Source: Candidatus Omnitrophota bacterium (GTDB lineage: Bacteria > Omnitrophota > Gorgyraeia > Zapsychrales > Zapsychraceae). From it: a stretch of 64,000 nucleotides of DNA. The stretch is taken from assembly GCA_003528115.1 (NCBI GenBank), contig DOGZ01000006.1, positions 64,076 through 128,075 on the forward strand, in the 5' to 3' direction. The notes under the pieces were generated by a model that saw nothing but the letters and a program-made list of their open reading frames with translations, was not told the origin of the DNA and did no database searches. Both the position numbers and the translations under genes were made by a program. Below are positions 18,355-56,233 of the stretch, one piece after another (positions within the stretch are counted from its first letter, which is position 1; each line of letters begins with the position of its first letter).

Positions 18355-18383
18355 ACCGGAGCCGTTGTCGCCTTAAAACGCTT

Positions 18384-19477: not shown

Positions 19478-19481
19478 GGTG

Positions 19482-21518: not shown

Positions 21519-21528
21519 GACAACGCTC

Positions 21529-22542: not shown

Positions 22543-22579
22543 ATTACCCTAAAAAACTTTTAACAACTTCTCTATTACT

Positions 22580-24257: not shown

Positions 24258-24345
24258 CTGACCTGCCGACTTCCATAAAAAGCAATGAAACACTTTGGTC
24301 GTCAGCCCCAACTGTTCTGCGTTAATTATTCATGGGAGAACATCT

Positions 24346-25404
24346 ATGAGCATTGAAGTCAAAGGCGTATCCAAGACATTCGACACATTCAAGGCCCTGG
24401 ATCGCGTCGATTTAAACATTGAGACCGGCGAACTCCTCGCCCTTCTGGGGCCTTCCGGATCAGGAAAAACGACCCTCCTGCGCATCATTGCCGGGCTGGA
24501 AGTCGCGGATGAAGGCCAAATTCTTTTTCACGGTGAGGATACCAAAGAAAGGAAGGTCAAGGACCGCCAGGTAGGGTTTGTTTTCCAGCATTACGCGCTG
24601 TTTCGCCACATGACCGTTTTTGAAAACATTGCTTTCGGCTTACGGGTTAAACCCAAACATCTGCGCCTGTCCGACGCACAAATCAAAGAAAAAGTTCACG
24701 GGCTTTTGCGATTAATCCAGTTGGATTATATCGGAGAGCGTTACCCCTGGCAACTCTCCGGCGGACAACGCCAGCGCATTGCCCTGGCCCGGGCTTTAGC
24801 GGTTGAACCTAAAGTGCTTCTTTTAGATGAACCTTTTGGTTCTCTGGACGCGCAAGTGCGTAAAGAACTGCGTCAATGGCTGCGCCGGTTTCATGATCAA
24901 CTGCATATCACCAGCCTGTTTGTCACTCACGACCAGGAAGAAGCGCTGGAAGTGGCGGATAAAATTGTCGTCATGAATAAGGGGCGTCTGGAACAGGTGG
25001 GAACGCCGGAGGAGGTGTATCATAAACCGGCGAATAAATTTGTCTTAAACTTCTTGGGGAACGTCAACTTCTTCCATGCGCGGGTTGTAGACGGAAAAGC
25101 CTACCTGGGCAACGCCATGATCGACCTGCCGGATCTGCATAAAAACAGCAAGACGGCCAGTCTTTTTGTCCGGCCGCATCAGTTTGAACTCACCCGTCAG
25201 CCTAAAGACGGTTCATCGCTCAAGGCTGTCGCACTCACCATTAATCCCGCCGGCTCCGTCGTCAAAATCGATTTAAAATCCGAGGGAGGCGACACTTTCC
25301 AGGCCGAAATCACGCAAGAGGAATTTCAGGCCCTGCGTTTTCAGAAAGGCGACACGATCTACGTCTCCCTGCGCCAGGTAACGTATTATGAATATGAAAT
25401 CTGA
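24346..25404 (+). CDS. cysA: sulfate ABC transporter ATP-binding protein CysA (start taken at ATG 24346, MSIEVKG...)
   Basis: Walker [10 protein letters not shown], signature [15 protein letters not shown], Walker B LLLDEP, C-terminal TOBE-like domain. Confidence 0.8.
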
Positions 25405-36360: not shown

Positions 36361-38163
36361 TTAAGGGATGATGCTTAAAAATATAATGTAAAAAGTCGAG
36401 AGCACAAGAATGACAATCGTTATCGGTATTCCCAGACGGCTGTAATTAGCGAAGGTCAGGCCTTCCTTTTTCTTCTGATCCGTCCCCAGTTCCTCAGCAA
36501 GAGTCTGAGCTATGATGCCCGCGCTGGCGCCTGAAATACACGCGCAGGCCCCTGCTATTGATCCTAAATTTAAAGCCCACCACACAACATCCGTAAAATC
36601 CGCGAATCCTGAATGCATGACAATAGGGACAAGAAACGCCGATGCCGGTCCGGAGCTCATCAGCGCCGTAAGAAGCGTCGTTACCAACATCAAAAAGATC
36701 GGATACAGAATCTTATTGCCCATCGACATCGCGATGAGACCATCAGAAACAACCTTTAGAAGTCCGGAGTACAACGCGCCGCCGACGATCAAAAAGAGCG
36801 CGAAAAAGAATAATATGTCCGTGAGGCTTATCTTTTTTATCACCTCTTTGGCCTTTTGGTTCTCGATGGCCAAAAGGATAAAAGCACCGCCCATGGCTAT
36901 CGGCGCAAGATGTATCTTAAAACTCGGTAAAACTATAAAGGCCAGAAGAACACACCCCAAGATAAAAAGGACTCTTTTAATGTTAGGCCAATCCATCTTC
37001 ATGGCGCCAACTTCTTGTTCGACTTTGCTGAGGAATGCTTTCTCCAGTTTAAGAGACTTGACTTTTCCCTTATGCCGCAACTCGAAAAACCACAGATACC
37101 AGAGAAAAACAGCTAAAAACACAGCGCATATAGGTCCCATGACGATGAGAAAATCCATGAACGTTAATCCCGCGCTCGAGGCCATCAGCATATTGGAAAA
37201 ATCTCCAATCGGGGTAATGTTTCCGCCGATAACGGAAGAAATGATTTCAGCAATAACAACGGTGACAGGCTCGAAGTTCAATCCCCGCGAGGCATAAATT
37301 GTTATGGGAATAATGACCAAAATAACCGACATATTGTTAACCAGCGCTGACGCGATAAAGGTCATGATACACAAAGAGAGGATCACCTTGACGGAGTCGG
37401 CTTTTGACGTGATGATGATTTTCTTTGAAACATACTCAAAAAACCGTAAATCCTCGAGAAATATGGTGAAAATACTCATTCCCATAAAGATGAAAATCGG
37501 GCTCATCCGGATAGAGTCGAACGCCTCGGTTTGGTTATAAAAACCAAAAACCGAACCGGCGACCAGCATAAGGACCGCGCCCAGCGTCACACACACCGTA
37601 CGATTAAAGAGATTTAAGAAAAGCATGGAAAAGGTAATAAAGACAATCACCAGGACGACTAATATATCCCTGCCATTGGGCCCAAAGATGTCGATGCCGG
37701 CATGGACGGGAATTTTATCGGCCATATTCATGATTCTGCCATTACGCCAAATAACAAAGCTGACCTTCTCACTTGGCTTACTCTGTGACATCAAATACGC
37801 GAGGTGATTGGCGGACTGGACATCAACGCCATTGTATTCGAGGATCACATCCCCGCGCCTGATATCGATAAGACGCCTGGCCGACCCTTTCGGGACATTG
37901 TTCACTAAAACCCCGCCCACATTAGAGAGATTAAATTCCTTGGCGATGATGGTATTGACGGTAATGACATCAAATTCAAGGGCATTGGTGCCGCCGGATT
38001 GAACCAGACGCGGTTTGCTGGATCGAGGCATATTTCTGGTATCTATAAAAAGCGCCGCGAGCACAACAATGACAACCAGGGCAATGGCCGCCTCCATAAA
38101 CGGAAAACTCTTGAAACGCTCCAATTTATCTTTTTGCAAAGATCTTGACCTACTCAAAGCCAT
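36361..38163 (-). CDS. PDZ domain fused to ArsB/NhaD-superfamily ion permease (MamN-like)
   Basis: N-terminal TM plus PDZ (GGVLVNNVPKGSARRLIDIRRGDVILEYNGVDV). C-terminal ~440 aa polytopic permease with ArsB/NhaD-like motifs (NITPIGDFSNMLMASSAGL..., GSIAGACACISGASAGIIAQ). Confidence 0.55.
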   Translation of the reverse strand: MALSRSRSLQKDKLERFKSFPFMEAAIALVVIVVLAALFIDTRNMPRSSKPRLVQSGGTNALEFDVITVNTIIAKEFNLSNVGGVLVNNVPKGSARRLIDIRRGDVILEYNGVDVQSANHLAYLMSQSKPSEKVSFVIWRNGRIMNMADKIPVHAGIDIFGPNGRDILVVLVIVFITFSMLFLNLFNRTVCVTLGAVLMLVAGSVFGFYNQTEAFDSIRMSPIFIFMGMSIFTIFLEDLRFFEYVSKKIIITSKADSVKVILSLCIMTFIASALVNNMSVILVIIPITIYASRGLNFEPVTVVIAEIISSVIGGNITPIGDFSNMLMASSAGLTFMDFLIVMGPICAVFLAVFLWYLWFFELRHKGKVKSLKLEKAFLSKVEQEVGAMKMDWPNIKRVLFILGCVLLAFIVLPSFKIHLAPIAMGGAFILLAIENQKAKEVIKKISLTDILFFFALFLIVGGALYSGLLKVVSDGLIAMSMGNKILYPIFLMLVTTLLTALMSSGPASAFLVPIVMHSGFADFTDVVWWALNLGSIAGACACISGASAGIIAQTLAEELGTDQKKKEGLTFANYSRLGIPITIVILVLSTFYIIFLSIIP

Positions 38164-42221: not shown

Positions 42222-43373
42222 TTATTTCTTTAAAATGATATGACACGTGTTGCATTTACCGCGATATTCATGCGGAGGAATCGCCCCCCTAGTTATCGGC
42301 GGCGGGTTAGGCAATATGTCCCCCGCGTCTGTCGGAAGTTGACCGCCGGTCGCCATAAAAATATGGCAAGCCGTACATGGCTGATGCCTGATGCGATGCG
42401 GACTTAAGGCATTTGGCGTTATGGGTTGGGCAGCCTCATTTTGTGAAAATCCCAGTGTCCTTGTTGATGAGAATGTAAATTCCAGTAATTGCCCGCGCCG
42501 GGAAACGAGTATTTTTGCTTTATACCTATTTTTCACTCTTCTCGTGGCTTCGGTAAAGGCAATGAGGTCTGGTGTGGCAATCCGATTTACAGCAACGACC
42601 ACATCTCCCGCCAATATCCCGGATTCAGCGGACTCAAGCGATATCTCATCAACGAGAAGCCCATTGATTTCCGCAGGAACCTGATATTCCTTGGCCAACT
42701 CCGGTGTAAGCGGAATAAGTTCGATCCCGAGCCAGTGCCCCTCAATGAGTTCTTTGTGGACGGCGCCCTGTTCTCTCGGGCTAGGGAGTTTCAAGGGAGG
42801 AGTATTCTGGCCGCCCATAATCGCTCCTGCCTCGCCGGCAGCCGGACCTGCCTCGGCTGTTTCAGCAGGCGAACGATTCGCAAACGCTGCCTGCGTCATC
42901 CCCTGAGGAATACCGGCAGTACCGGTAATCGCCGCATCAAGATTCAGCGCTTTTTTATCGTTGATTCCTAATTTATTTTCCATGGTAATATAAAGCGGCT
43001 GCCCATTGCGCAGCATATCCAAAAGGACGCCCGTCTCTAAGTTTGCCGCCTTGGCTCCTTTAAGAAATTCAGATATGTTCTTTACTTTTTTATTGTTAAT
43101 CGCCTTCAAAAGGTCGCCGCCGAGCACGCCTGCCGAATAGGCCGGGTCCTCACTCCAGTTGACAACGACACCTTGCTCATCTTTGGGAATGTTGAACTCC
43201 ATCCTAAGCGCGGGCGTGATGTTTGAGACCGACATACCGGCCCACTCGGCATCACCAGCGCCTATATGCATAAGCGCTGCCATAAAGAAAAGCGCCATGG
43301 CTCCAAGCGTTAGGAGAAGAAGAAATCTCTGTCTATTTTTGTGACGGTGTTGGTTAAGTTTATCAGGCATCAA
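42222..43373 (-). CDS. PDZ-domain protein with two C-terminal CXXCH magnetochrome-like motifs (MamP / MamE-Cter-like)
   Basis: N-terminal TM, two PDZ-like regions, then SPHRIRHQPCTACH and PPHEYRGKCNTCH (P-x-H-x5-6-C-x-x-C-H). Confidence 0.6.
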   Translation of the reverse strand: MMPDKLNQHRHKNRQRFLLLLTLGAMALFFMAALMHIGAGDAEWAGMSVSNITPALRMEFNIPKDEQGVVVNWSEDPAYSAGVLGGDLLKAINNKKVKNISEFLKGAKAANLETGVLLDMLRNGQPLYITMENKLGINDKKALNLDAAITGTAGIPQGMTQAAFANRSPAETAEAGPAAGEAGAIMGGQNTPPLKLPSPREQGAVHKELIEGHWLGIELIPLTPELAKEYQVPAEINGLLVDEISLESAESGILAGDVVVAVNRIATPDLIAFTEATRRVKNRYKAKILVSRRGQLLEFTFSSTRTLGFSQNEAAQPITPNALSPHRIRHQPCTACHIFMATGGQLPTDAGDILPNPPPITRGAIPPHEYRGKCNTCHIILKK

Positions 43374-43382: not shown

Positions 43383-43646
43383 TTATTTTGAGGTTGTTTT
43401 AGGTTTAAGTTCAATACGCTCGATAGCGGTATTGCATTCCTTGCAGACCCAAAGCTGTCTCTTGGCTCCCATCATATATAAACCAATCACAAAGAGTGGA
43501 ATCCCTAAAACCGCGCCGATCCAAAAAAGCGTCGCGAAAACACCGCCCGCGACTAAAAATCCTCCAACTTTCCTACTATAGCGAGGTCCTGTATAAGACT
43601 GCATCTCGCCATTACAAAGCGAACAAATTAAAGGCTTGTTTGTCAT
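43383..43646 (-). CDS. small membrane protein with split zinc-ribbon (CSLC...CKEC) flanking a TM hairpin
   Basis: 87 aa. CxxC at residues 8-11 and 68-71, two TM helices between. Confidence 0.4.
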   Translation of the reverse strand: MTNKPLICSLCNGEMQSYTGPRYSRKVGGFLVAGGVFATLFWIGAVLGIPLFVIGLYMMGAKRQLWVCKECNTAIERIELKPKTTSK

Positions 43647-43969: not shown

Positions 43970-45472
43970 TCAATTGCCGCCACCAATGACGACGTGCGCG
44001 GTGTTTGGGTCCTGCATTACGTTATTCTGCGTCTGACTATTTTGCATCCTGCTCTGAATATTCTGCGCGCCCGCCGGGGTTCCCAATTGATGGCAATTGG
44101 TGCATGATCCCCGGTACTCATGAGGCATAATGATAGGGGGTGCAACTGCTGCCCCTTGCGGTGTGCCCTGGGCCACAAAACCTGCATTTTGCGTCATAGC
44201 GACCTGGTTTGTAAAATTACCGGTACCGCCAAAGCCTAACGGAGCCGCATTGTTTGGGATATTTTGATTCTGCGAATACGCGCCACCTTGTGCCATAATC
44301 TGGTCACAGTTAGGGCATCGAGGATACGGATCGTTTGGATCTTTCTGGGCATACATCCTCCAGTTACAATTTGGACAGAGAAAAAAACCGGTTGATTCAG
44401 GGCCCTGCCAAAAATTTGGCTGGTTGGTCATCTGGTTCATCTGGGGCCGAAGTTGTGTCATATCTGCCGCCCATTGCCCTTCTGACCACCACTTCCCGAT
44501 TTTATTCTGGTTAGACATATCGAGGGCCAAGGGAGAAGCACAGTTCGGACAATTCGGAAAGTTATTCCCCTGACGGGTCGCTTTCATTCGCCAATTACAA
44601 TTCGGACAAACAAAAGCCTGTTGCCCCCAACCAAAAGCGGCCTGAGTCCCCGCCGTAGCAAAATTATTCCCCATGCCCATACCATCCATCACGCCTTTGT
44701 TGTATATGTCCTGTGTTCCCCAGCCGGCTGGCACCCCACCATATATGCCGCCGCCCTGCATTCGATTCGGAATTGGGCAGAAATAATTGTTCATTCCCAT
44801 GCCCTGCATATCCTGCATTCCCCAACCAGTTTGTGTTGCTTGTTGTGCGACATTTTGCTGCATCATCAGTGTTCCTTGCCCGTGGACTGCTTGCGCATTG
44901 CCCCAAGTCGGTTGAGGCGTTTGCATTATCGGTGAAATTTGGGGAATATTCGCCGTAGGTTGCGGTACTTGTGCTATCCGGGCTTGCCGATAAAGCTTGA
45001 TGACATTGCGCGTCTGACCTTGATACCCGCCAAACACCCGTATGTCGAATTGCAAAAGAATGTTATAACTTTGCTGGTCTATGCTTCCTACGATAACGGC
45101 TTCCTCCCCTTTGCCGGCTATTAAATACGCGATCTGAGGATTAGGCTCCGCGCCACGATAAGGATTCTTTATGGCCTCAACGAGTTTTCTTGACAAAGGA
45201 TCGACCACCAAAAAGAAGCTCGCCTCAGACAATGTCGCGGATACATTTGAAGCCAAAGACGGTCCGTCCGTAGCAACAACGATTTTCCCGCAGGCGGGAT
45301 TTCCCAGTCTTGAATTCTGGGATCCAGGTGAGAATAGGGCATACACACCGACGACTAATACAAAAACAATTGCGCCAAAAATAAAATAAGTATTTAAGTC
45401 GGTATTTCTTACACGCGCTGTGAATTCCTCAAAGAATGTCTTGATGATTTTCTCTTGGGGTTTCTTTACCAT
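43970..45472 (-). CDS. mosaic protein: TM + NifX/NifB-like (FeMo-cofactor-binding-fold) domain + Gln/Gly/Met-rich region + two CPNC...CPNC zinc-ribbon pairs + C-terminal magnetochrome-like CXXCH
   Basis: GKIVVATDGPSLASNVSATLSEASFFLVVDP...AYLIAGKGEEAVIVGSI resembles the dinitrogenase FeMo-cofactor-binding fold. CPNCNWRM...CPNC occurs twice. C-terminal MPHEYRGSCTNCHQ. Confidence 0.55.
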   Translation of the reverse strand: MVKKPQEKIIKTFFEEFTARVRNTDLNTYFIFGAIVFVLVVGVYALFSPGSQNSRLGNPACGKIVVATDGPSLASNVSATLSEASFFLVVDPLSRKLVEAIKNPYRGAEPNPQIAYLIAGKGEEAVIVGSIDQQSYNILLQFDIRVFGGYQGQTRNVIKLYRQARIAQVPQPTANIPQISPIMQTPQPTWGNAQAVHGQGTLMMQQNVAQQATQTGWGMQDMQGMGMNNYFCPIPNRMQGGGIYGGVPAGWGTQDIYNKGVMDGMGMGNNFATAGTQAAFGWGQQAFVCPNCNWRMKATRQGNNFPNCPNCASPLALDMSNQNKIGKWWSEGQWAADMTQLRPQMNQMTNQPNFWQGPESTGFFLCPNCNWRMYAQKDPNDPYPRCPNCDQIMAQGGAYSQNQNIPNNAAPLGFGGTGNFTNQVAMTQNAGFVAQGTPQGAAVAPPIIMPHEYRGSCTNCHQLGTPAGAQNIQSRMQNSQTQNNVMQDPNTAHVVIGGGN

Positions 45473-45526: not shown

Positions 45527-46117
45527 TCACTTAAAAACAGGACCGTACTGAAACACTTTTCCAGAAAACGGCGAACCAAGCTGCCAACTCCCCTTATTTG
45601 GTCCTAAAAGCGGGCCGTATTGATATTCGAAGGGGATGGCTATATATAAAGTCTTTCCATCCCGATTAATGTCTAAGAGAATTCCTTCCGTATATTGAAC
45701 ACTATTAGCCACTTTGACAAAGGCACGGGCCGTCGCAACGGGCTTCCGGCCAATGGCGACGATAACATCACCGGTCTTTACTCCGTATTTTTGGGCCAAT
45801 TGTTTTCCCTCATCAATAACGAACATCCCTTTGATTTTAGCCTGGATATTGAATTCCTTCCTGATACTCCGTGAAAGAGGGGCCAGCTCCATACCGACCC
45901 ACATCAAGCTGTCTCCTTTTTCAATAACCATGCCTTTTGTCACTTCCTTTGGTTCCTGCTTCTCTGGAAGGATCTCTAAGGAAGATAATAATCGGAAAAA
46001 GACAATGATCCCGAAGACCACGATACCGGCAAAATACCACGGCTTTTCTAACGCAAAATCTTTAACCTGTTTTTGAAATTTTTTAAATGTAGGATTCGCC
46101 CTGGACTTTGTGTTCAT
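45527..46117 (-). CDS. membrane-anchored PDZ-domain protein
   Basis: N-terminal TM plus PDZ (GMFVIDEGKQLAQKYGVKTGDVIVAIGRKPV). Confidence 0.55.
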   Translation of the reverse strand: MNTKSRANPTFKKFQKQVKDFALEKPWYFAGIVVFGIIVFFRLLSSLEILPEKQEPKEVTKGMVIEKGDSLMWVGMELAPLSRSIRKEFNIQAKIKGMFVIDEGKQLAQKYGVKTGDVIVAIGRKPVATARAFVKVANSVQYTEGILLDINRDGKTLYIAIPFEYQYGPLLGPNKGSWQLGSPFSGKVFQYGPVFK

Positions 46118-47517
46118 TGTAATTTTATTAACACCTCATCGACCTTACCGTTTCTAAGGACACGCACGTTGACGTTGTCCCCAGTCTTAAAATGCGCGAC
46201 TATTTTTGGAATATCGTCTTTCCCGGTAATCGGCACACCGGCTACCGCGACAATGATGTCTCCGCGTTGGATACCGGCAAAACTGGCTGGAGATTCGTCA
46301 ATAACTCTATTGACTAAAACACCCTGCCGCTCGGTAATCCCGAACTGTCGCGCTATGACAGCGTCCACCGGCATGACCTCAATCCCAAAATGAACAGGAA
46401 TTGGGGCTTTTTGCGTCTTATTAAGATCCCTAAAGTCTCCGACCAGCATCCCTTTTTGATCAACTGGGAATGAATAGTTCTTGCCGAGATTTTCCGCAAG
46501 AAAATCTTTACAGTCATTGATCGGTATGGCAAACCCTGTCCCGCTAAAAACTCCTGTCGGCGCGTAAATAGCCGTATTGATTCCAATAACCTCTCCTCTT
46601 AAATTAACAAGGGGGCCTCCGGATGATCCTCGGTTTATGGGCGTGTCCGTCTGAAAAAGGTTTTTATACCGAACACCTTCAATCGCGATGGATTTCCGTA
46701 TGCCGCTGATAATCCCGCTGGTAACTGTCTGCTCAATACCAAAAGGGCTGCCCACGGCGATGACATAATCACCTAACTGGCTGAAACTGGAATCCCCTAA
46801 TTTCGCTTCGGGAAATGGGCCGTCGGCTTTGACTTTAATAAGGACCAGGTCGTTGTCGGGATCCTGCGCGATAATATCCGCGTGATAATCACGGGGAGGC
46901 GTACCAAAGATTGTTACAACGATATCCGTTGCATCGTGGGTCACATGACAGTTCGTCAGCACATATCCTCGTTCATCAACAATGACGCCCGCGCCGATAT
47001 TCTCGTATCCTTTATTTTCAATAAATTTATCAACACTACCGTCAAACGAAGGGATAAATTTTAAATTTTGCGCATCGATGGCTTGCCGATTGCCGGGTGA
47101 ACGAACAATTCTTCGGGCATGCACGTCACACACGGAAGGGATGACAGCATTAACAGCGTCTTTCAATGAATTCTGAAAAACGCTGTGTGATGAATTGGCC
47201 ACAAGCTGCATATTCCCGTAGGGTGTTGCCTTAGTGATGCCCGCGAGTGCATAATCCCCGGCAGATTGTGGACTGTTCACGGCGGCCTGCGTAACCGCTT
47301 TGGGGAAGGACGGCTCACCGGTAATAGGAGAAGTGACCTTGGGCACGCGCTCCTTTTCCATCTCAACCCCTTGAATGATATCTTCCCTCTTCATCATAAC
47401 CCAAAAAACTAACATGACGCAGATAAGAGCCACGCCGGCAATCCAGGGACCGATCGGTTGATTACAAAATTGACCTCTGTTTTCATCCATCACATAAACT
47501 CCGCTGTCCGTCCCCAA
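46114..47517 (-). CDS. trypsin-like serine protease (HtrA/DegP family) with C-terminal PDZ (MamE-Nter / MamO-like)
   Basis: Catalytic triad context: TNCHVTHDAT (His), DLVLIKV (Asp), GSSGGPLVN (Ser). PDZ at the C-terminus. N-terminal TM. No CXXCH, so the magnetochrome part appears to be encoded separately (42222..43373). Confidence 0.7.
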   Translation of the reverse strand: MGTDSGVYVMDENRGQFCNQPIGPWIAGVALICVMLVFWVMMKREDIIQGVEMEKERVPKVTSPITGEPSFPKAVTQAAVNSPQSAGDYALAGITKATPYGNMQLVANSSHSVFQNSLKDAVNAVIPSVCDVHARRIVRSPGNRQAIDAQNLKFIPSFDGSVDKFIENKGYENIGAGVIVDERGYVLTNCHVTHDATDIVVTIFGTPPRDYHADIIAQDPDNDLVLIKVKADGPFPEAKLGDSSFSQLGDYVIAVGSPFGIEQTVTSGIISGIRKSIAIEGVRYKNLFQTDTPINRGSSGGPLVNLRGEVIGINTAIYAPTGVFSGTGFAIPINDCKDFLAENLGKNYSFPVDQKGMLVGDFRDLNKTQKAPIPVHFGIEVMPVDAVIARQFGITERQGVLVNRVIDESPASFAGIQRGDIIVAVAGVPITGKDDIPKIVAHFKTGDNVNVRVLRNGKVDEVLIKLQ

Positions 47518-47927: not shown

Positions 47928-48098
47928 TTATTTTTTGTCCTTTTGGAGTTTCATCCCGGTGTTGACCGCGATAAGTCCTCCGATAAAAAGCACCAGAGGT
48001 AGGAATCCCCGCAGAAAATCGCCGAAATTATCCCACCATCCTATAATCCCGATGAGTCCAAGAACTGCCGCAACCGCTCCGCCGATAATATGTACCAT
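47928..48098 (-). CDS. unannotated 56-aa 2-TM protein (MamI-like candidate). Below the ORF-track size cut-off.
   Basis: Reverse-complement of 47928-48098 gives MVHIIGGAVAAVLGLIGIIGWWDNFGDFLRGFLPLVLFIGGLIAVNTGMKLQKDKK. Two Gly-rich helices separated by a WW-containing loop, reminiscent of MamI. Confidence 0.4.
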   Translation of the reverse strand: MVHIIGGAVAAVLGLIGIIGWWDNFGDFLRGFLPLVLFIGGLIAVNTGMKLQKDKK

Positions 48099-48155: not shown

Positions 48156-48617
48156 CTATGTGAAAATTTTTAAGAGCGCGTTCTTCGCCGAAGCGAAATG
48201 TTTGCCGGATAAATAAAACCTTTCTCTAAAAAATTCATTAATTTTGTCCTTTTTCGCGGACATAAGGACGTTTGAGGATTCCGCCACCGCGTTTTGTTCC
48301 ATCCTCTTAAGAACTTTTTTTCTCTGAGGATAGTCCCTGGCAAGATATTTAGGGTCTGCTGAAGTAATTTCCTTTGATTCCAAACAAGACACGCTTGGTG
48401 AGTCAGTACCGGATTCGGTGGGCTCTTGTTTAATCGATTGGCTTTCTTTCTTGAGAAGAACTAGGATGGCTTCTCTGGGTATTCTCTGGTGCCCGCCAAG
48501 GGTGGAAACAGCTAAAAGTTTACCTTTTTTGATCCAATTAAGAATTGTAAAACGTGTTACATCGCAGATCTTTGCCGCTTGCGATGTCGTTAAGTACTCG
48601 TTAGGCATAACTGGCAT
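48156..48617 (-). CDS. HTH DNA-binding protein (excisionase/MerR-like HTH; MamR-like?)
   Basis: N-terminus LTTSQAAKICDVTRFTILNWIKKGKLLAVSTLGGHQRIPRE is a MerR/excisionase-type HTH_17 motif. The C-terminal 100 aa have no recognisable fold. Confidence 0.5.
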   Translation of the reverse strand: MPVMPNEYLTTSQAAKICDVTRFTILNWIKKGKLLAVSTLGGHQRIPREAILVLLKKESQSIKQEPTESGTDSPSVSCLESKEITSADPKYLARDYPQRKKVLKRMEQNAVAESSNVLMSAKKDKINEFFRERFYLSGKHFASAKNALLKIFT

Positions 48618-48909: not shown

Positions 48910-49680
48910 TTAAAACCTGAGATACTTGCGGCAAAGGCCGGTAAGAAAGAGAGGTAAAATAAAAAGACCGCTAAAAGCTTCGATAACGGCAACCGCTTTA
49001 CTAAATCCAATAGGAATTACATATTCAGCGCCCACTTTAGTGAACGTGGTAAAACTAAAATAGGTTGCCTGAAATAAATCAGGTTTTATGATCATATTGT
49101 CCCTGCTAAGGTGTCCGCGGGTATATAACACCGAGCATAAGAGAACCAACAAAAAGCCGAAAAACGCTGTACGGTGAGGTCGCTCACCATGCCCCCATAC
49201 GAGGGAAGAAAAGGTCAAGGTTATAAGGGGAACCAATCTCCTGCCAACTAACTTGAGGTTGAACTTAATTTCCACATTATCATCTTTCTTCGAAGCACGA
49301 AACAAATCAAAGAATAGAAATTTTCGATAAGATTCTTTGGACCTAAAAAAACATTCGGAATAGGCAAGGTAATCATGATCCCGCTCATAACTGACTGCCG
49401 CATATTTATAGAGCATGGAGGCATACTCTAAATCCATGGAAACCTCTGCTTCTCGGGCGGCTTCCTCATAAAGGTAGGCGATACGCTGAAATGTTTTTTG
49501 CCCAAACATAAGCGCCAGGCTGCTTGCCGCGGCAGCCAAACAAATCGCCGCCTGATTATGTTTTTCTTCCTTTTGAAAGGCCCTGGCAGCTTGAAAATAT
49601 AAATCCCCCGCATCTTCATACTTATGTTCCCCAAGAAGCTGTTGGGCTTTTTGCTCAAGCGATTTTAAATCTGATGCCAT
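48910..49680 (-). CDS. two-TM pore-domain (Ion_trans_2-like) channel protein with N-terminal soluble helical domain
   Basis: C-terminal TM-pore loop-TM with FTTFTKVGAEY in place of the K-channel TTVGYG filter. Confidence 0.45.
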   Translation of the reverse strand: MASDLKSLEQKAQQLLGEHKYEDAGDLYFQAARAFQKEEKHNQAAICLAAAASSLALMFGQKTFQRIAYLYEEAAREAEVSMDLEYASMLYKYAAVSYERDHDYLAYSECFFRSKESYRKFLFFDLFRASKKDDNVEIKFNLKLVGRRLVPLITLTFSSLVWGHGERPHRTAFFGFLLVLLCSVLYTRGHLSRDNMIIKPDLFQATYFSFTTFTKVGAEYVIPIGFSKAVAVIEAFSGLFILPLFLTGLCRKYLRF

Positions 49681-49681
49681 T

Positions 49682-50035
49682 TTATAGCCCTTTCAAGGCA
49701 TCTTCGCGATTCTCAAAAATACCGAATAACTTATGCACTTTGGTAATCTCAAATACACCTATATTTCTTTTATTGACATGACATAAGCGCATGCGCCCGC
49801 CGACTTTTTCCAAATTTTGAAACATCTCGAGAAGGGTGGCAATCCCTGAGCTGTCAATAAAGCCAACCTTTTCAAAATCAATTAAAACCTTGATATTCCC
49901 GTCTTTTAAAATTTTTTTAAAGGTCTCCCGCAACATATTGGAATAATTCATATTGAGTTCACCCTCCAATTTAACAATGACATTATCGTTTATTTTCTCA
50001 ATTTTTATGTTCACTTTCCCCTCCCTTGCTTTCAA
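49682..50035 (-). CDS. STAS-domain anti-sigma factor antagonist (SpoIIAA/RsbV-like)
   Basis: 117 aa. GELNMNYSNMLRETF...IDFEKVGFIDSSGIATLLE is a STAS fold with a conserved phospho-Ser context (DSSG). Confidence 0.75.
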   Translation of the reverse strand: MKAREGKVNIKIEKINDNVIVKLEGELNMNYSNMLRETFKKILKDGNIKVLIDFEKVGFIDSSGIATLLEMFQNLEKVGGRMRLCHVNKRNIGVFEITKVHKLFGIFENREDALKGL

Positions 50036-50474
50036 ACAACTTAATCATTTTAATCGTTCGTCCTTTACTGAAGAATTTCACGTCATTCATTATCTTTCTG
50101 ATTAAATATATCCCGCGACCTTGATGTTGCATAATATTCTCCGGCGTGGTGGGATCCGGTAAGACACGATAATCAAATCCTTCTCCCTGGTCACTCACTT
50201 CCAGGGTCAATTGGCTTTTATCAATTTTGATGAGGACATGGACACCTAAAGCACTGTTCAATTTATTCCCATGCTTAACGGCATTAACGACTGCTTCATG
50301 CAAACAAAACTTTATGTTAAAAATGTCGTTTTCCTTCACGGGCAGAAGACGCAACTTTTCAACCGCCGAAGAAATAAAATCAGGCACAAGGGCCATCTTT
50401 GAAGGAATGGTTTCATTAAGAATTATTGTTGAGGCCATTGGATTGTTTTGGGCTTGCTGAAGAACATTAACCAT
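49998..50474 (-). CDS. anti-sigma regulatory factor / Ser-protein kinase (RsbW/SpoIIAB-like, HATPase_c)
   Basis: LHEAVVNAVKHGN (N-box), DQGEGFD (G1-box). 158 aa. Overlaps the STAS gene. Confidence 0.7.
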   Translation of the reverse strand: MVNVLQQAQNNPMASTIILNETIPSKMALVPDFISSAVEKLRLLPVKENDIFNIKFCLHEAVVNAVKHGNKLNSALGVHVLIKIDKSQLTLEVSDQGEGFDYRVLPDPTTPENIMQHQGRGIYLIRKIMNDVKFFSKGRTIKMIKLFESKGGESEHKN

Positions 50475-50562
50475 ACGGTTTTAATTAAGGCGGTAGTATA
50501 TCAAAATATCCCATCTGCGCAAAATAAAAATAATCTGCCTTAACAATGGATAGCTTAACGGC

Positions 50563-52479
50563 CTAAACAATTTTAACAACGACCAGGGTAATATCGTCAT
50601 GCTGTTTGGATTTTGACTCGAATGTTGTTACATCTTTTTCAATCACCTCGCGCAGTTGTTGCGCTGATAAATCCCGGTGAGCATCCGCTAAAGACGCAAG
50701 CTTCTCGGCCGTGTACATCTCGGATTTGGCATTGACAGCCTCAGTTATCCCATCCGTATAAAAAATAAAGATGTCGCCTTGCTCATATTTTACCTGATTA
50801 CCCGAATAAGGCCTTTTGATCATCCCTAAAGGCAATCCTTCCGCCACATCTAAAAAAACTGGTTTTTTATCTTTAGCTAAATATAAAACAGGAACATGTC
50901 CGCCATTGGCATACGCCATGACCCGGCTGTCAAGATCAAAAACCCCATAAAAAAGAGTCACCAAAAGATTCGCGGAAGATTCTTGAATAATTTTTTCATT
51001 CAAATGGCGCAACGCCTCCTGCGGGGCAATCTCCGGCTTGGCAAAAAACTTAAATGAACTCGTGACCATGGCCATAAAAAGGCTGGCGGGGACCCCTTTC
51101 CCCGTGACATCCCCTATCAACACCCCGAATTTCCCCTCATCAAATTCAAAAAAATCATAGAGATCACCCCCTACCTGACGGGCAGTAAGCATAGCCGCAG
51201 TCATATCAAATCCCGCAATCGTAGGCACTATCGCGGGGAGGAAACTTTGCTGTATCTGTTTGGCAATTTGCAGCTCTTTTTCCAAGACAATGCGTTCCTT
51301 AAATTCCATAATATATTTGAACAATGTGCAGGAAAAATAAAGAAGACTGGTAATGAACATGGGATAAAAGATGTCGATCCAAAGGCCTCGCATATTAAAA
51401 AACAACACGCACGATAAAACAAAAATAGAATTGACTCCCAGAAGAATTCCCAATGCCCGCAGAGGAGAAGTCTTGGTAGAAGATGCAAAGATAAATAGAA
51501 CCAAAAGAAAAAGGATACACAAATTGACTGCCTTCGATTCTCTTGTAATAAAATTTTTATTGATGATCGAGTTAAAAATTTCCGCGTGTATCCCTACAGC
51601 AGGGTAAAGCGACTCGAGCGGGGTTGAATGCAAATCCGTTGTTCCGTCTGCCGTAAAACCGACCAGGCATACCTTGCCTTTAAAAACATTGAGATCCAGC
51701 AGGCCTTCTTCTCCCGTGGTGTGGGCCTTATACGACTGCAGGATATCTACGTATGAATAGTGTTGACACTCGCCTCCCCATTTCCCGGAAAAATTGATAA
51801 TAATGTTTGAGTTTTCATCCAATGGTATTTTTTGGTGAGAGCCATACGCGAAATGCCCTCCCGGTACCAGACGGCTATTGTGCTGGCCCAATCCCAAATA
51901 ATCATAACTTACTAAGAAAGCCATGGAAGGGTACATATCTTTTTTATAGCGAATATACAAAGGGACTCTTCTAAATTTTCCATCAAAATCAGGAATAATA
52001 TTAATATGCCCTGTCCCCTTGGCGAGACGTGTGAGGTTTTCTAAATTTTGCGCGGAATATTTAACGGCCTGAAGCATGTTCCGTTCCGTTTTAGGGACAA
52101 CTTCAAAAACATAGGGCAAATAGACATTCCCGGCAGAACGCATGGCTTCCTGTAATTCGTTATCCCCTCTCTGGGGCTCGCTAAAAAAAATGTCGAAGAC
52201 AATGGCCTTGGCGCCAAATTCGGAAAGGGCTTTGATGAGCATTGCGTGATACCCCCTATCCAAGGGAAAGCGACCGAGTTTTTCGATGGTATCATTGCCA
52301 ATTTCAATAATAACAATTTTATCTGTTGCTGGGATATGGGGACGAAACCGAAACCGCAAATCGAGGGTGCCCAATTCATAATTATCGAAAAGGTGGAAGT
52401 ATGACCCCGCAAAAATAGAGCTGATGATTAAAAGGATTGAAACGGCCAAAATACCGCGTTTGAGAAATTTTGTAAACAT
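50563..52479 (-). CDS. CHASE2 sensor domain fused to PP2C/SpoIIE-type phosphatase (RsbU-like)
   Basis: N-terminal TM plus periplasmic CHASE2-like domain plus TM bundle. C-terminal PP2C (GGDLYDFFEFDEGKFGVLIGDVTGKG...FIFYTDGITEA). Confidence 0.7.
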   Translation of the reverse strand: MFTKFLKRGILAVSILLIISSIFAGSYFHLFDNYELGTLDLRFRFRPHIPATDKIVIIEIGNDTIEKLGRFPLDRGYHAMLIKALSEFGAKAIVFDIFFSEPQRGDNELQEAMRSAGNVYLPYVFEVVPKTERNMLQAVKYSAQNLENLTRLAKGTGHINIIPDFDGKFRRVPLYIRYKKDMYPSMAFLVSYDYLGLGQHNSRLVPGGHFAYGSHQKIPLDENSNIIINFSGKWGGECQHYSYVDILQSYKAHTTGEEGLLDLNVFKGKVCLVGFTADGTTDLHSTPLESLYPAVGIHAEIFNSIINKNFITRESKAVNLCILFLLVLFIFASSTKTSPLRALGILLGVNSIFVLSCVLFFNMRGLWIDIFYPMFITSLLYFSCTLFKYIMEFKERIVLEKELQIAKQIQQSFLPAIVPTIAGFDMTAAMLTARQVGGDLYDFFEFDEGKFGVLIGDVTGKGVPASLFMAMVTSSFKFFAKPEIAPQEALRHLNEKIIQESSANLLVTLFYGVFDLDSRVMAYANGGHVPVLYLAKDKKPVFLDVAEGLPLGMIKRPYSGNQVKYEQGDIFIFYTDGITEAVNAKSEMYTAEKLASLADAHRDLSAQQLREVIEKDVTTFESKSKQHDDITLVVVKIV

Positions 52480-52683
52480 GCTGAGCCTTTTAGGACTTTC
52501 GCGTTTGGATGAAATGCGAGGCGCAACCGAGGAGTCCCGGGAAAAGCTCGGGATAAACTCCGCGAGGCGTACTGTTGTGTACGCTGAACAAGCGCAGAAG
52601 GTTGCAACTTTCTAACCACTCCATAGCTATTAGCTTACCTCAATATCTTTGTCTTGGAAATGGTATCTATTGAAAAATCCGGG

Positions 52684-52716
52684 TTAAATAAATAAGCCCG
52701 CTTGTTTCAGCGGGCC
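52684..52716 (-). terminator. Rho-independent terminator downstream of the P-type ATPase gene (minus strand)
   Basis: gcccgc/gcgggc 6-bp stem with 8-nt loop at 52696-52715. The forward strand is preceded by aaataaataa, so the minus-strand RNA has a hairpin followed by UUAUUUAUUU. Confidence 0.5.
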
Positions 52717-52741
52717 TATTTTCCTTAATGTTATAAAATCC

Positions 52742-54889
52742 CTATCGAAGTAATCGAAGCGCATTAAAAACAACGACGATAGTAGCCCCCATATCCGCCG
52801 CAATCGCCATCCAGAGATTTGAAATCCCTACAAATGTAAGAATGACAAAAAGTCCTTTAACGCCAATTGAAAAGGCAATGTTTTGTTGAATAATCTTAAG
52901 TGTCCGATGGGAATGTTGGATTAACCAAGGAATTTTTTCAATGTTATCGGACATCAAGGCGATATCCGCAGTTTCGATTGCCATGTCCGTTCCCATCCCC
53001 GCCATCGCAATGCCAATGTGGGCAGAGGCTAAAGCCGGGGTATCGTTAATCCCATCACCAATCATGCCGGTTTTATATTTTTGAGAAAGATCGTGAATAA
53101 TTTTGACTTTATCCTCCGGTAATAATTGGGCATGCACTTCATCCATCCCCAGGGATTTTCCGACCGCTTGGGCGGTTTGCCAATTGTCCCCCGTCAATAA
53201 AATCACTTTTTGAATTCCCAAAACTTTAAGCTCTCGAACAATATCTTTGACATCCGCTCGGATTTGGTCCTTCAGCGTTATGATGCCGCAAATATGTTCC
53301 TGATCGCAAATCCCAACAATGGTATGCGCCTCGTCTTCAAGATTTTTTGCAAGCGTATGAAATTCTTCGGTTTCAACACCGAGTTCGTCCATCATTTTAT
53401 GACTGCCAATCCAGTACTTTTTCCCGTCAACGAACCCGTAAGCTCCTTTCCCGGGAAGAACGGTATATTCCGTTGAAGCCAAGGATTTAATTTGTGATTG
53501 TTTTGCCTTCTTTAAAATGGACCGCGCTAAAGGATGGCAGCTGTGCTGTTCTAAGGCCGCGGCGAGTCCAAGCAGTCGGGTTTCCGTATTCCCATTTAAA
53601 GGAATAATCTTTTCGACTTGAGGTTTTCCATACGTGATCGTCCCCGTTTTATCCAAGGCCAAAACCGACATTCGACCAATGCCTTCCAAAAAGACACCGC
53701 CTTTAATTAAAATTCCGTTTCTGGCCGCGCGGGTCAACCCGGCCACAATACTAACGGGAGTCGAAATCACCAGCGCGCAAGGACAACCGATGACCAAAAG
53801 AACCAAGGCATCATAAAACCATTTTGACCAATTCCCCAAAAATAAAGGCGGTATGGTAGCAATGACAACAGCAATCAGCAGCATAAAAGGTGTATAGTAA
53901 CGCGCGAACTTGTCTACCCATTGTTCGCTGGGTGCCTTGCGATCCAGCCCTTCTTCAACCATTCGAATAATTCTCGCCAATGTGGTGTCGCTTGCTGGTT
54001 TGGTCACGCTAAATTCAATAGAGCTTTCCTCATTCAAGGTCCCTGCGTAAACGTTGTCCCCTATCGTTTTGGTAACAGGGACGGCTTCTCCCGTGAGCAT
54101 GCTTTCATTGATCGCGGACGTTCCTTGAGTGATTGTCCCATCCAAAGCGATCTTTTCCCCCGGTCGAACCAGAACAGTCGAATTAAGAGGAATCTCTTCG
54201 ACAGGTTTTTCTGCAACGATGCCGTCTGAAGTCCTATAACGCGCAACCGGCGGAGAAATCTGTAACAAGGATTCAATCGCGCGACGCGCCTTGGAAACGC
54301 TCCAGGACTCCAGATAAAGAGAAATCGCAAAAAGAAAGATGACCGTCGCGCCTTCAAACCATTCGCCGATAATCACGGCGCCGATCACGGCAATCGTCAT
54401 TAATAGATTAATGTTCGGACTTAACGTTCGAATGGCATACATAGCCCCGGGAAGAACAAAACAGATCGCCGAAGCGATGGAGAGACTATAAAAAATTATA
54501 CTTAATAACGGCAAGACATGCTGTTCATGGCTACCTTTGATAATATCGGCAATATTTTTATGGAAATATACCTGTGAGAGGAAACCTAAAAGAAGAAATG
54601 TCCCAGATATGACTGTCATTACAAATTTCTTATCAAAAACCCGGGATTTTGACGCGTGTGATTTCTCGAATAAAACCTTCTCCCACAAAACGGCCTCCAT
54701 GCCGGTTTTTTGGATAGAATTAAATAGTTGCTCGACAAGTCGTTCGTCTTCCAACTCCGCGGTCATTTTCCCTTTCAAAACATCAAAAGAGAGACAATCC
54801 TCTCCCCCGACCAAAGGACCGACAGCTTTTTTTAAGATGGCAATCTCCTCAGCGCAATCCATGCCGATGATTTTTAATTCAACCTTCAT
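52742..54889 (-). CDS. heavy-metal translocating P1B-type ATPase (Zn/Cd/Pb-type)
   Basis: N-terminal HMA-like domain (GMDCAEE). TM CPC motif (GCPCALVIS), DKTGT phosphorylation site, GDGINDTPAL hinge. Confidence 0.8.
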   Translation of the reverse strand: MKVELKIIGMDCAEEIAILKKAVGPLVGGEDCLSFDVLKGKMTAELEDERLVEQLFNSIQKTGMEAVLWEKVLFEKSHASKSRVFDKKFVMTVISGTFLLLGFLSQVYFHKNIADIIKGSHEQHVLPLLSIIFYSLSIASAICFVLPGAMYAIRTLSPNINLLMTIAVIGAVIIGEWFEGATVIFLFAISLYLESWSVSKARRAIESLLQISPPVARYRTSDGIVAEKPVEEIPLNSTVLVRPGEKIALDGTITQGTSAINESMLTGEAVPVTKTIGDNVYAGTLNEESSIEFSVTKPASDTTLARIIRMVEEGLDRKAPSEQWVDKFARYYTPFMLLIAVVIATIPPLFLGNWSKWFYDALVLLVIGCPCALVISTPVSIVAGLTRAARNGILIKGGVFLEGIGRMSVLALDKTGTITYGKPQVEKIIPLNGNTETRLLGLAAALEQHSCHPLARSILKKAKQSQIKSLASTEYTVLPGKGAYGFVDGKKYWIGSHKMMDELGVETEEFHTLAKNLEDEAHTIVGICDQEHICGIITLKDQIRADVKDIVRELKVLGIQKVILLTGDNWQTAQAVGKSLGMDEVHAQLLPEDKVKIIHDLSQKYKTGMIGDGINDTPALASAHIGIAMAGMGTDMAIETADIALMSDNIEKIPWLIQHSHRTLKIIQQNIAFSIGVKGLFVILTFVGISNLWMAIAADMGATIVVVFNALRLLR

Positions 54890-54892
54890 CCT

Positions 54893-56233
54893 TTAGAATT
54901 CGATTTGTGTTTGTACATAAAAGTAATCAATTGGTTTTTTAGATCCGGTTGCGTCTTCGAAGAACTTTCCGGTAAAAAACCTGTTCGCGCTGGCAATGAT
55001 ATTGCAGTTCTCAAAAAGATTGTATGTCGTGATGAGGTTGATTTCATCCCCCAGATTCTTGCTTATCCCATTGGGCGTTTTATCCGAAAGTAAATAATGG
55101 TTATCCAGATTCAAATTCAACTTGGAGGTTAAATCCAGCGATAGGCCCGCAACGAATATATGCATACCGCTGGCTCTGGCGTCGCCCACCGTAATACCGC
55201 TAAGGTCTGGAATAAGACTGGTATCACCCACCAGATAATTATCGTTGTAAATGTTACCGTGAAATTCCCTAAATTTTTTATCTTGGGCATTATTGTCTCC
55301 GCTTCCAAAGGCGTAAGCGGTAAATATACGGGTCTTATGTTCAGAATCCATGGTGTAACCTGCCTCGATATGCCCGCCATAGGCGCTGATAGTATCCTGA
55401 GCCAAACGCTCGGAGTTTTCAATCTTACCAAATTGATAGAGCGGTTCTATCTCATAATCAAATCCACCCTTAGTCTTACCGGCTAATCTTGTTCCTAAAG
55501 TAAACCATTTATCACTAGCCGGAAGGTCGGTATGAAAAAACTGAAAACCGCCTTTGTGATAAAAGAAATATAAATCAACAGCCGAATCGTGCGTTAGTTC
55601 ATAACTCGAATAAGCGCCGTATAAAGCAGGCTCGTTATCGCTTGTATTTTCATTGAGTTTAACGTAACGGGCGCCGATTAAATCTACCCAAAAATTGTCT
55701 TTGGGAGCGATTTTGATTTTTCCCCCATCCCAAACAAGCCCCTCGTAAAAGTCATTCGGGCCTAAAAAGAACGACGTTCCGTAAGAAAGTTCCTGCCGTC
55801 CAACCTTAAGGCCTACGGGAAGATTTTCCATGCCGGAGAATTCAACATACGCCTGATATAGATTCACCTCAGAGTAATCGTCGGGATTCTCCCGCGTATA
55901 GAATTGGCCTTGGATAAAGCCTGCTAATGACTTCATCGGCTTTACGGACAGATTTAGCCGCGTCCTCGAGACGACTTGTTCATCGTGTGTATCAGGGCTA
56001 AAGCCAAAGTCGCTTAAAAGCTGATTTCGAACAAAGTCGCCACGCACACGCGCTTGAGCCCCCATGTGAAAGATATCACTGATTTTCTTTCCAGCATCAA
56101 TTTCATGACGTTCTTCGCCGACCTCCTTTTCCTCATCATGAATACTCGCAGCACTGACACTATGGCCCTGAACGAATACCCCCAAAGCTAAAAACAAGCA
56201 AATTCCCTTAATTTTAAACATGCTTGCCTTCAT
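54893..56233 (-). CDS. outer-membrane beta-barrel protein (signal peptide, C-terminal Phe)
   Basis: Signal peptide (...GHSVSAAS), alternating-hydrophobic beta-strand pattern, ends ...YVQTQIEF. Confidence 0.45.
   Translation of the reverse strand: MKASMFKIKGICLFLALGVFVQGHSVSAASIHDEEKEVGEERHEIDAGKKISDIFHMGAQARVRGDFVRNQLLSDFGFSPDTHDEQVVSRTRLNLSVKPMKSLAGFIQGQFYTRENPDDYSEVNLYQAYVEFSGMENLPVGLKVGRQELSYGTSFFLGPNDFYEGLVWDGGKIKIAPKDNFWVDLIGARYVKLNENTSDNEPALYGAYSSYELTHDSAVDLYFFYHKGGFQFFHTDLPASDKWFTLGTRLAGKTKGGFDYEIEPLYQFGKIENSERLAQDTISAYGGHIEAGYTMDSEHKTRIFTAYAFGSGDNNAQDKKFREFHGNIYNDNYLVGDTSLIPDLSGITVGDARASGMHIFVAGLSLDLTSKLNLNLDNHYLLSDKTPNGISKNLGDEINLITTYNLFENCNIIASANRFFTGKFFEDATGSKKPIDYFYVQTQIEF

Follow-up and report, generated by a model that had tools for sequence, protein, structure and literature searches.

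We describe here a gene at positions 43970..45472 (minus strand) of a 64,000-nucleotide stretch of DNA, referred to as the window, from contig DOGZ01000006.1 of a Candidatus Omnitrophota bacterium (assembly GCA_003528115.1). Located in a magnetosome gene cluster, it encodes a 500-residue protein, hereafter the target, in which one NifX-like domain, two ribbons of four cysteines each and one magnetochrome (MCR) follow a single transmembrane (TM) helix. We consider it reasonably probable that this protein is a lumen-facing iron redox and iron-handling scaffold that acts early in biomineralisation. The early iron role is proposed because of analogy with MamP and with the phenotypes of FmpA and FmpB, two magnetosome proteins of Desulfovibrio magneticus RS-1.

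Domain layout of the target

The open reading frame (ORF) of the target is uninterrupted over 500 codons from ATG to stop, and no PDZ domain is present in the polypeptide. Its parts, in the order TM helix, NifX-like domain, two ribbons and single magnetochrome, are as follows.

43970..45472, minus strand: whole ORF, 500 amino acids (aa) plus stop codon, ATG start; gene 5 of the MamI-to-MamP block in the magnetosome gene cluster
45395..45472, minus strand: residues 1-26, basic and conserved N-terminal tail (K+R 6, D+E 4), predicted to be cytoplasmic
45329..45394, minus strand: residues 27-48, the sole transmembrane helix, a predicted signal anchor (hydropathy; helix 26-46 in the AlphaFold2 (AF2) model)
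44969..45292, minus strand: residues 61-168, NifX/NifB/NafY-like (PF02579) domain of magnetosome type (Pfam, profile, AF2, Foldseek)
44627..44968, minus strand: residues 169-282, disordered linker 1 (G20, Q16 and M11 of 114 residues; D+E 3)
44507..44626, minus strand: residues 283-322, four-Cys ribbon 1, AFGWGQQAFVCPNCNWRMKATRQGNNFPNCPNC (Pfam, alignment, AF2)
44396..44506, minus strand: residues 323-359, W/Q/N-rich linker 2 (AF2, composition)
44285..44395, minus strand: residues 360-396, four-Cys ribbon 2, FWQGPESTGFFLCPNCNWRMYAQKDPNDPYPRCPNC (Pfam, alignment, AF2)
44144..44284, minus strand: residues 397-443, G/A/N/Q-rich linker 3 with zero charged residues (AF2, composition)
44075..44143, minus strand: residues 444-466, single magnetochrome, APPIIMPHEYRGSCTNCHQLGTP (Pfam, alignment, family profile)
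43973..44074, minus strand: residues 467-500, Q/N-rich tail ending in the conserved hydrophobic motif AHVVIGGGN (C-terminus comparison)

An earlier note on this DNA, made from the letters alone, had placed a TM segment at the N-terminus. Indeed, one hydrophobic segment was observed in the target, at residues ~27-48, with a Kyte-Doolittle maximum of 2.6. Covalent heme attachment is an extracytoplasmic process. From the positive-inside rule and from the need to attach c-heme outside the cytoplasm, we infer an N-in (type-II) orientation, in which all parts after the TM helix, the NifX-like domain included, would lie in the periplasm or the magnetosome lumen. A lipoprotein reading of 'NPAC' was rejected; the -3 residue is not hydrophobic and the Cys lies 13 residues past the hydrophobic segment.

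The NifX/NafY-type fold suggested in the earlier note was upheld by family matches to PF02579, by AF2 and by Foldseek. Pfam Nitro_FeMo-Co (PF02579) matched residues 75-162 of the target at E 2.1e-5 (25.2 bits). Since the target-only Pfam scores were marginal, the matches were tested at the family level, using an alignment of 37 full-length members. When these were scanned singly, PF02579 matched 35 of the 37 at E<=1e-3, the best at 2.6e-8, and the family profile matched PF02579 proteins of known structure, namely MTH1175 (E 2e-9) and TM1290 (9e-8). The structure prediction that the note had proposed as a check was run with the family alignment and gave a confident NifX/NifB-like fold for residues 61-168, with a predicted local distance difference test score (pLDDT) >90; 252 residues with pLDDT <50 correspond to the linkers, the heme-less magnetochrome and the tail. 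When the model was compared with the PDB using Foldseek, the top 11 structures were all of PF02579 type (E 2.7e-7 to 7.8e-4, target TM-scores 0.59-0.81), with TM1290, TM1816, PH0822, the Desulfovibrio orange protein (ORP), NafY, NifX (in the NifEN complex) and MJ0327 as the top structures. The hidden Markov models named in the same note, Nitro_FeMo-Co, magnetochrome and zinc-ribbon, all match, the first two marginally on the target alone.

The N-terminal tail, the TM helix and the NifX-like domain are very strongly conserved among the 37 members. The domain starts at the nearly invariant Cys61 of a GNPACG motif. G62, A67, N103, Y116, G122, E123 and Y161 are invariant in the alignment, N58, P59, A60, C61, K121, E124, R162 and R165 are nearly so, and the motifs GNPACG, NPY, GKGEEAVI, FGGY and LYRQAR carry invariant residues specific to the family. 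The canonical [RH]FG[RH] motif of PF02579, located after strand 1, is replaced in the target by 'TLSEAS', and the Gly-rich loops of PF02579 are also lost. None of the 61 family domains, the 18 FmpB-type domains or the 53 FmpA-type domains carries this motif; it was present in 32 of the 49 generic single-domain matches and in 32 of the 51 domains of small tandem two-domain proteins. No nif genes were found among the annotated ORFs of the window, the neighbours of the target being mam genes. With the motif absent and the window free of nif genes, the label 'FeMo-cofactor-binding' used in the earlier note is too specific. Because the canonical motif is gone, our confidence that the domain binds any particular ligand is low.

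Both of the CxxC ribbons described earlier are present, with spacers of 15 and 16 residues and not 16-20 as had been stated: CPNC-x15-CPNC in ribbon 1 (C289-C292...C308-C311) and CPNC-x16-CPNC in ribbon 2 (C366-C369...C386-C389). All eight cysteines are nearly invariant in the 37 homologues. Several zinc-ribbon Pfam models match weakly over residues 285-390, and AF2 placed short strands at 284-299 and 362-375 with pLDDT ~80-89. A match of the ribbons to the nigerythrin Fe(Cys)4 region was non-significant (E 0.28). No direct DNA repeats were found within the target gene; therefore, the two ribbons are not a recent duplication.

The Pfam MCR model (magnetochrome, PF18509) matched residues 445-465 of the target at E 6.8e-5 and matched 33 of the 37 family members at E<=1e-3, the best at 1.8e-18. 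In the magnetochrome sequence APPIIMPHEYRGSCTNCH (residues 444-461; also given as PPIIMPHEYRGSCTNCH), P445, H451, R454, G455, C457, N459, C460 and H461 are near-invariant, and the CXXCH is preceded by P-x-I...P-H-x-[YDW]-x-G, which supplies the distal His and the Gly. Furthermore, the family profile matched both magnetochromes of MamP (4jj0) at E 1e-8 in a residue-by-residue alignment. A c-type heme is predicted to be attached covalently at the CXXCH of the target. The C-terminal CXXCH magnetochrome of the earlier note was thus confirmed as a motif, but it does not end the protein, as a 39-residue tail extends beyond the CXXCH.

About 46% of the target is disordered, uncharged, G/Q/N/M-rich linker. 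The low-complexity composition is G 15%, Q 15%, N 11%, A 10% and M 7%, with T and P also rich; D+E account for 3% and basic residues for 2.6%, and linker 1 bears one single-Cys 'CPIP' motif (C232). Known mineral-binding magnetosome proteins are acidic. The G/M/Q-rich segments pointed out earlier are therefore present, but their reading as mineral-interacting found no support, because acidic residues are almost lacking. At the C-terminus, the family shows two flavours, [HR]-phi-x-phi-GG[KR] (AHVVIGGGN in the target) and GxC[VI][ILV][KR]-COOH, the latter in 23 of 63 members; K or R is the last residue in 51 of the 63. No match of the conserved C-terminal motif to known sorting signals was found, and the motif is a possible PDZ ligand.

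Family and gene neighbourhood

When a collection of 5.8 billion proteins was searched, 56 homologues were returned, and the layout of the target recurs in at least this number. Nearly all of the named ones came from metagenome-assembled genomes (MAGs) of Candidatus Omnitrophica/Omnitrophota, and many of the 56 carried precomputed PF02579 and PF18509 matches. When one genome per GTDB species was scanned, only 20 contained the family, 18 of them labelled Omnitrophota and 2 Planctomycetota (Planctomycetales). The family is confined almost wholly to magnetosome gene clusters of magnetotactic Omnitrophota. Its members are modular: the TM helix and the NifX-like domain are constant, and ribbons number 0-6, magnetochromes 0-4 and single-Cys 'CP[ILV]P' motifs 0-3. 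P0022, P0056 and P0089 are members without a magnetochrome. Existing database labels of members include 'magnetochrome domain-containing', 'NifB/NifX family' and even transcription-factor-like ones.

The closest homologue, P0001, showed 70% identity in the best local alignment and 72% in the full alignment. An extra, internally duplicated ribbon pair is inserted in P0001 ahead of the G/M-rich linker, which points to a recent module gain or loss within the family. P0052 and P0089 are paralogues in one genome, encoded on the same 60,469-nt Omnitrophota contig. P0052 consists of NifX, one ribbon and four magnetochromes; P0089 consists of NifX and three ribbon-like CxxC pairs, the middle one degenerate, with an extremely Met/Asn-rich linker.

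The magnetosome context assumed in the earlier note is firm, with MamE, a PDZ-only protein and MamP as neighbours, followed by MamM, MamB, MamA and MamQ. The genes around the target are listed below.

48156..48617, minus strand: HTH_17 regulator, directly preceding MamI in the window
47928..48098, minus strand: MamI-like protein, 56 aa
Between MamI and MamE, minus strand: 72-aa TM protein
46114..47517, minus strand: MamE-like trypsin + PDZ protease without magnetochrome (Pfam, NCBIfam)
45527..46117, minus strand: TM + PDZ-only protein, 196 aa, the upstream neighbour of the target (Pfam, NCBIfam)
Between the target and the 87-aa CxxC protein, minus strand: 88-aa protein
43383..43646, minus strand: 87-aa protein with CxxC, two TM segments and CxxC (weak LITAF-like zinc-ribbon match)
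42222..43373, minus strand: genuine MamP with two PDZ domains and two magnetochromes (NCBIfam MamP, 213 bits)
Downstream of MamP, minus strand: 91-aa protein, then MamM, MamB, MamA and MamQ
36361..38163, minus strand: PDZ-MamN fusion (NCBIfam MamN, 237 bits, residues 168-596)
Beyond PDZ-MamN, minus strand: TauE/MamO-C-like protein, another PDZ protein and HEAT-repeat proteins

The PDZ-only neighbour resembles the PDZ part of FmpA ('MamE-Cter'), and the NifX-like domain is absent from it. In a synteny test, the window proteins were compared by tblastn with 23 related loci, of which 21 are labelled Omnitrophota and 2 Planctomycetota. All 23 loci carried the same block of MamI, small TM protein, MamE, PDZ-only protein, target, (small protein), CxxC protein and MamP. 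The target was the least conserved of the block, with 36-65% best-segment identity as against 53-74% for MamE and 51-82% for MamB. A fusion artefact of two genes, which the earlier note had raised against itself, was ruled out by more than 50 collinear homologues and by the identical synteny at 23/23 loci; mis-assembly was likewise rejected, as the target is a single ORF in the 23 loci from independent assemblies and has full-length collinear homologues. A promoter and terminator scan around the target gene gave nothing exceeding the shuffled expectation.

Several further features of the region were observed. The 87-aa CxxC protein lies downstream of the target in 23/23 loci at 56-77% identity and is better conserved than the target. 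PDZ modules are unusually abundant in the window cluster, with the PDZ-MamN fusion and two further PDZ-bearing proteins. In some Omnitrophota clusters, MamP is followed by heme-biosynthesis genes (L001 11594..17692; L002 10900..17311; L003 5310..11721), namely NAD_binding_7/SirC-like, GlutR, HemC, HemD-CobA, a radical-SAM/SPASM gene and ALAD, with a cytochrome c assembly gene additionally in L002 and L003. These genes fit a high heme demand of the magnetochromes. In the window, by contrast, MamP is followed by the small protein, MamM and MamB. A FixC-like flavoprotein and a FixX-like ferredoxin are encoded between HTH_17 and MamI in two loci (L001 3685..5312; L002 3991..5570) and are absent from the window.

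Upstream of the cluster, positions 48910..56233 (minus strand) encode an Ion_trans_2-like 256-aa protein, a STAS anti-sigma antagonist, an RsbW-like kinase and a SpoIIE-type phosphatase, and a P1B heavy-metal ATPase is located at 52742..54889. Regulatory genes in matching order were found upstream of the cluster in L001, where the SpoIIE counterpart is CHASE2 + SpoIIE. Two ATP-binding cassette (ABC) transport systems lie just outside the cluster, at 17344..20893 (minus strand) and 21063..25404 (plus strand). A ModABC-like system (SBP_bac_11, permease, ATPase) is accompanied by a TOBE protein and a TetR regulator; the other system comprises an Rrf2 regulator, a substrate-binding protein, two permeases and a CysA-like ATPase that bears a TOBE domain. 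Between the ABC systems and the magnetosome cluster, an H+-pyrophosphatase is encoded at 25451..27871, and a very large ORF of 2266 aa occupies 9140..15940 (minus strand).

Probable kinship with FmpA and FmpB, proposed role and alternatives

In D. magneticus RS-1, FmpB (DMR_41100, formerly 'MamT' or 'MamP-like') combines a magnetochrome, a PDZ domain and a C-terminal NifX/NifB domain (Rahn-Lee et al. 2015, PMC4287615). Its gene adjoins that of FmpA (DMR_41090, 'MamE-Cter'), and fmpB mutants form fewer but otherwise normal crystals (PMC4287615). A 2025 study reported 'denitrogenase Fe-Mo' domains in both FmpA and FmpB and enrichment of both proteins in early-stage magnetosomes; mutant alleles predicted to eliminate these domains led to crystals that were fewer, smaller and partly misshapen (PMC12748827). 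The iron/cluster chaperone or redox role suggested in the earlier note is consistent with these genetics (PMC4287615, PMC12748827). The combination of modules, which had been called unusual, is less so, as a magnetochrome is paired with a NifX-like domain in FmpB (2015) and NifX-like domains are paired with ribbons in Desulfamplus FmpA-type proteins.

When 1.84 billion representatives were searched exhaustively with HMMER, using the NifX-domain profile, 1191 matches were obtained at E<=1e-3. After the family itself, the top matches were FmpB-type proteins (MCR x2-3 + PDZ + NifX x1-2) and FmpA-type proteins (PDZ x2-3 + NifX x2-4 + ribbons), some of the latter from Desulfamplus MAGs. A word-indexed homology search with the same profile returned fragments and generic PF02579 proteins only and did not reach FmpB. 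The second tier of matches at 90-132 bits was dropped as proof of close kinship with FmpA/FmpB, because per-domain rescoring showed that these scores sum two to four domains. In a neighbour-joining (NJ) tree with 300 bootstraps, the family formed a clade at 0.83. The replacement motif of the family, 'TLSEAS/R', resembles 'TLAVAP' and 'NLSNAR' of FmpB-type C-terminal domains, and the FmpA-type ribbon form C-x-CPxCG..HPxGVPC...CPxCG recurs in P0099, a divergent member of the family, and in P0138 (TM-NifX-ribbon-PDZ). The target and FmpA/FmpB probably share ancestry and draw on one pool of shuffled lumenal modules.

MamP is an Fe(II)-oxidising magnetochrome protein. In the role that we favour, MamB and MamM would deliver iron at the membrane close to the NifX-like domain, which would hold there an iron species, either Fe ions or a polynuclear unit of Fe-S or Fe-O type. 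The c-heme of the magnetochrome would exchange electrons with lumenal iron, as in MamP, and the Cys4 ribbons would be structural Zn sites or else rubredoxin-like Fe sites relaying electrons. The uncharged, disordered linkers would extend the reach of the redox modules. The stage of action would be nucleation and early growth, and loss of the protein should yield fewer, smaller crystals. A bolder version appears quite unlikely to us: the family and FmpA/FmpB would form a magnetosome-type extracytoplasmic NifX/NafY branch with a retooled site, and the target would unite a chaperone that keeps a polynuclear iron (Fe-S or Fe-O) precursor beside the membrane, an Fe(Cys)4-heme wire that controls the redox state of this precursor, and a mineral-nucleating linker gel or condensate. 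If true, this would be a self-contained mineral-precursor chaperone without counterpart in the alphaproteobacterial model organisms.

Several observations weigh against an iron redox and iron-handling role. The organism is uncultured. The target-only score for PF02579, 25.2 bits, is just under the gathering threshold of 26.3, and that for the magnetochrome is 22.8 bits against 30.4. With the [RH]FG[RH] motif and the Gly-rich loops lost, the NifX-like domain may bind no metal cluster. Comparison of the ribbons with PDB sequences gave no informative relative, so Zn versus Fe is not arguable from homology. As for the kinship with FmpA/FmpB, single domains of these types scored 57-66 bits at <=38% identity, and the best generic PF02579+DUF5320 protein scored ~73 bits at 36%. 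In the NJ tree, FmpB-type C-terminal domains were nearest to the family, followed by FmpA-type domains, with the generic ones outside, and the deeper bootstraps were <0.1. Common ancestry thus rests mainly on the shared motif loss and module set, both of which could be convergent.

Some of these observations suit a different reading, in which the target is mainly a non-catalytic scaffold or adaptor whose C-terminal tail docks the PDZ domains of the PDZ-only protein, MamE and MamP and recruits or regulates the MamE protease. The NifX-like domain would then be a dimerisation or protein-binding module, the ribbons would be structural Zn sites, the linkers would form a lumenal matrix, and the heme would be the sole redox element. 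The loss of the [RH]FG[RH] motif and Gly-rich loops is in accord with this, as are the 46% predicted disorder and a gene position that always adjoins PDZ-encoding genes. Homologues have anything from 0 to 6 ribbons and from 0 to 4 magnetochromes, a freedom expected of spacer-like modules, and some members are magnetochrome-free; however, the eight cysteines of the ribbons and the key residues of the magnetochrome hardly vary. The NifX-like domain is, moreover, the most strongly conserved part, and its invariant polar residues N103, Y116, E123 and Y161, with the near-invariant C61, K121, E124, R162 and R165, suggest a specific ligand site. The tail itself can be argued both ways: it is conserved, with 51/63 members ending in K or R, but PDZ ligands usually end in a hydrophobic residue. 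We regard a mainly non-catalytic scaffold as unlikely.

It appears very unlikely that the target is the Omnitrophota orthologue of MamP, MamT or the magnetochrome part of MamE, that is, an Fe(II) oxidase only, with the other modules as decoration. Weak NCBIfam matches to MamP (20.7 bits) and MamT (18.7 bits) are confined to the magnetochrome, and they are far under the equivalog cut-offs of 300 and 200, respectively. The local MamE is without the magnetochromes of alphaproteobacterial MamE, and the heme function could come in trans; nevertheless, a genuine MamP with two PDZ domains and two magnetochromes is located three genes downstream. In addition, the core of the family is the TM helix and the NifX-like domain and not the magnetochrome, which some members lack. 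Finally, a cytoplasmic NifX/NafY-type cofactor carrier (nitrogenase-type or Mo), a zinc-ribbon nucleic-acid binder or an assembly fusion is hardly credible: the automatic Joint Genome Institute (JGI) names of homologues (TFIIE, Elf1, DUF1610), a weak NCBIfam match to transcription factor E (E 2.7e-4) and the ModABC-like transporter ~24 kb away in the window are outweighed by the single N-terminal TM helix followed by a CXXCH magnetochrome, which would put the protein outside the cytoplasm, by the absence of nif genes from the window and of [RH]FG[RH] from the domain, by the 23/23 loci examined that hold the family inside magnetosome gene clusters, and by the collinearity of the ORF with over 50 homologues that stem from independent assemblies.

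A lumen-facing scaffold for iron redox and iron handling in early biomineralisation is thus the reading that we retain. Of the modules that recur in the magnetosome proteins of deep-branching magnetotactic bacteria, the NifX-like domain is the one least understood, and its pairing with magnetochromes is an established, poorly understood theme in these bacteria. Omnitrophota is, to our knowledge, a phylum without a cultured magnetotactic member. The theme takes its simplest natural form in the Omnitrophota family, where one very strongly conserved, directly membrane-anchored NifX-like domain is combined with a single heme and two Cys4 sites as a minimal redox set; the target is thus a convenient construct for finding out what NifX-like domains of the magnetosome type bind. 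The same four modules, PDZ, NifX-like, ribbon and magnetochrome, are shuffled differently in Desulfobacterota and Omnitrophota, which bears on the evolution of magnetosome clusters. The annotation of these generically labelled proteins is also improved.

Comparison with known systems

No published name or description of the Omnitrophota architecture was found in the literature searched. Mad9 was considered as a candidate NifX-like protein and set aside, as this was not confirmed in the retrieved papers.

The cytoplasmic PF02579 proteins (NifX, NafY, the C-terminal domain of NifB, MTH1175/TM1290/TM1816/PH0822, ORP and PF02579+DUF5320 proteins) have the same fold as the target domain. In contrast to them, the target is predicted to be extracytoplasmic, is membrane-anchored, lacks [RH]FG[RH] and the Gly-rich loops, and has no nif or orp context. 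Outside the magnetosome proteins, the best matches were P0116, P0117 and P0121, which are small and cytoplasmic and combine PF02579 with a Gly/Met-rich segment of GMGRGMGMG type and a coiled coil; DUF5320 is matched by P0116 and P0117 and not by P0121. A PF02579 domain with a G/M-rich stretch is therefore not unique to magnetosome proteins.

MamP (PDB 4jj0) and PF18509 share with the target the heme unit P-x-I...MPH-x-YRG-x-C-x-x-CH. The target differs from MamP in its single magnetochrome and in having no PDZ domain, so the dimeric 'crucible' of MamP cannot be assumed for it. The NCBIfam model for MamP (NF040965) gave 20.7 bits on the target against a cut-off of 300 and covered the magnetochrome only; that for MamT (NF040992) gave 18.7 bits against 200, and the target has one CXXCH where MamT has two.

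FmpA-type proteins resemble the target in having Cys-rich ribbons (CPxCG...CPxCG) set among NifX-like domains that lie outside the cytoplasm. At the level of single domains, the target domain matches best with domain 1 of the FmpA-type protein P0098, at 38% identity. They differ in length (900-1500 aa), in carrying 2-3 PDZ and 2-4 NifX-like domains and no magnetochrome, and in ribbons that have extra Cys residues and a conserved His. The PDZ domains of FmpA are in-chain, whereas the PDZ domain associated with the target is on the separate 196-aa protein encoded just upstream.

The comparison with FmpB used the FmpB-type representatives P0091, P0092, P0096, P0097 and P0131 in place of RS-1 FmpB itself. 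Both proteins have an N-terminal anchor or signal, one or more magnetochromes and one or more NifX-like domains without [RH]FG[RH], and both are encoded in magnetosome clusters next to MamE-derived PDZ genes. The order of modules is reversed: TM, NifX, ribbons and MCR in the target, and MCR x2-3, PDZ and NifX x1-2 in FmpB. The target has no in-chain PDZ domain, one NifX-like domain instead of two and one magnetochrome, and it alone carries two Cys4 ribbons and ~230 residues of Q/N/G/M-rich disorder. The NifX-like domains are ~30-35% identical, and the sister relationship is without statistical support. Taken together, these comparisons suggest that the target is a rearranged relative of FmpA/FmpB and not an orthologue of equal architecture.

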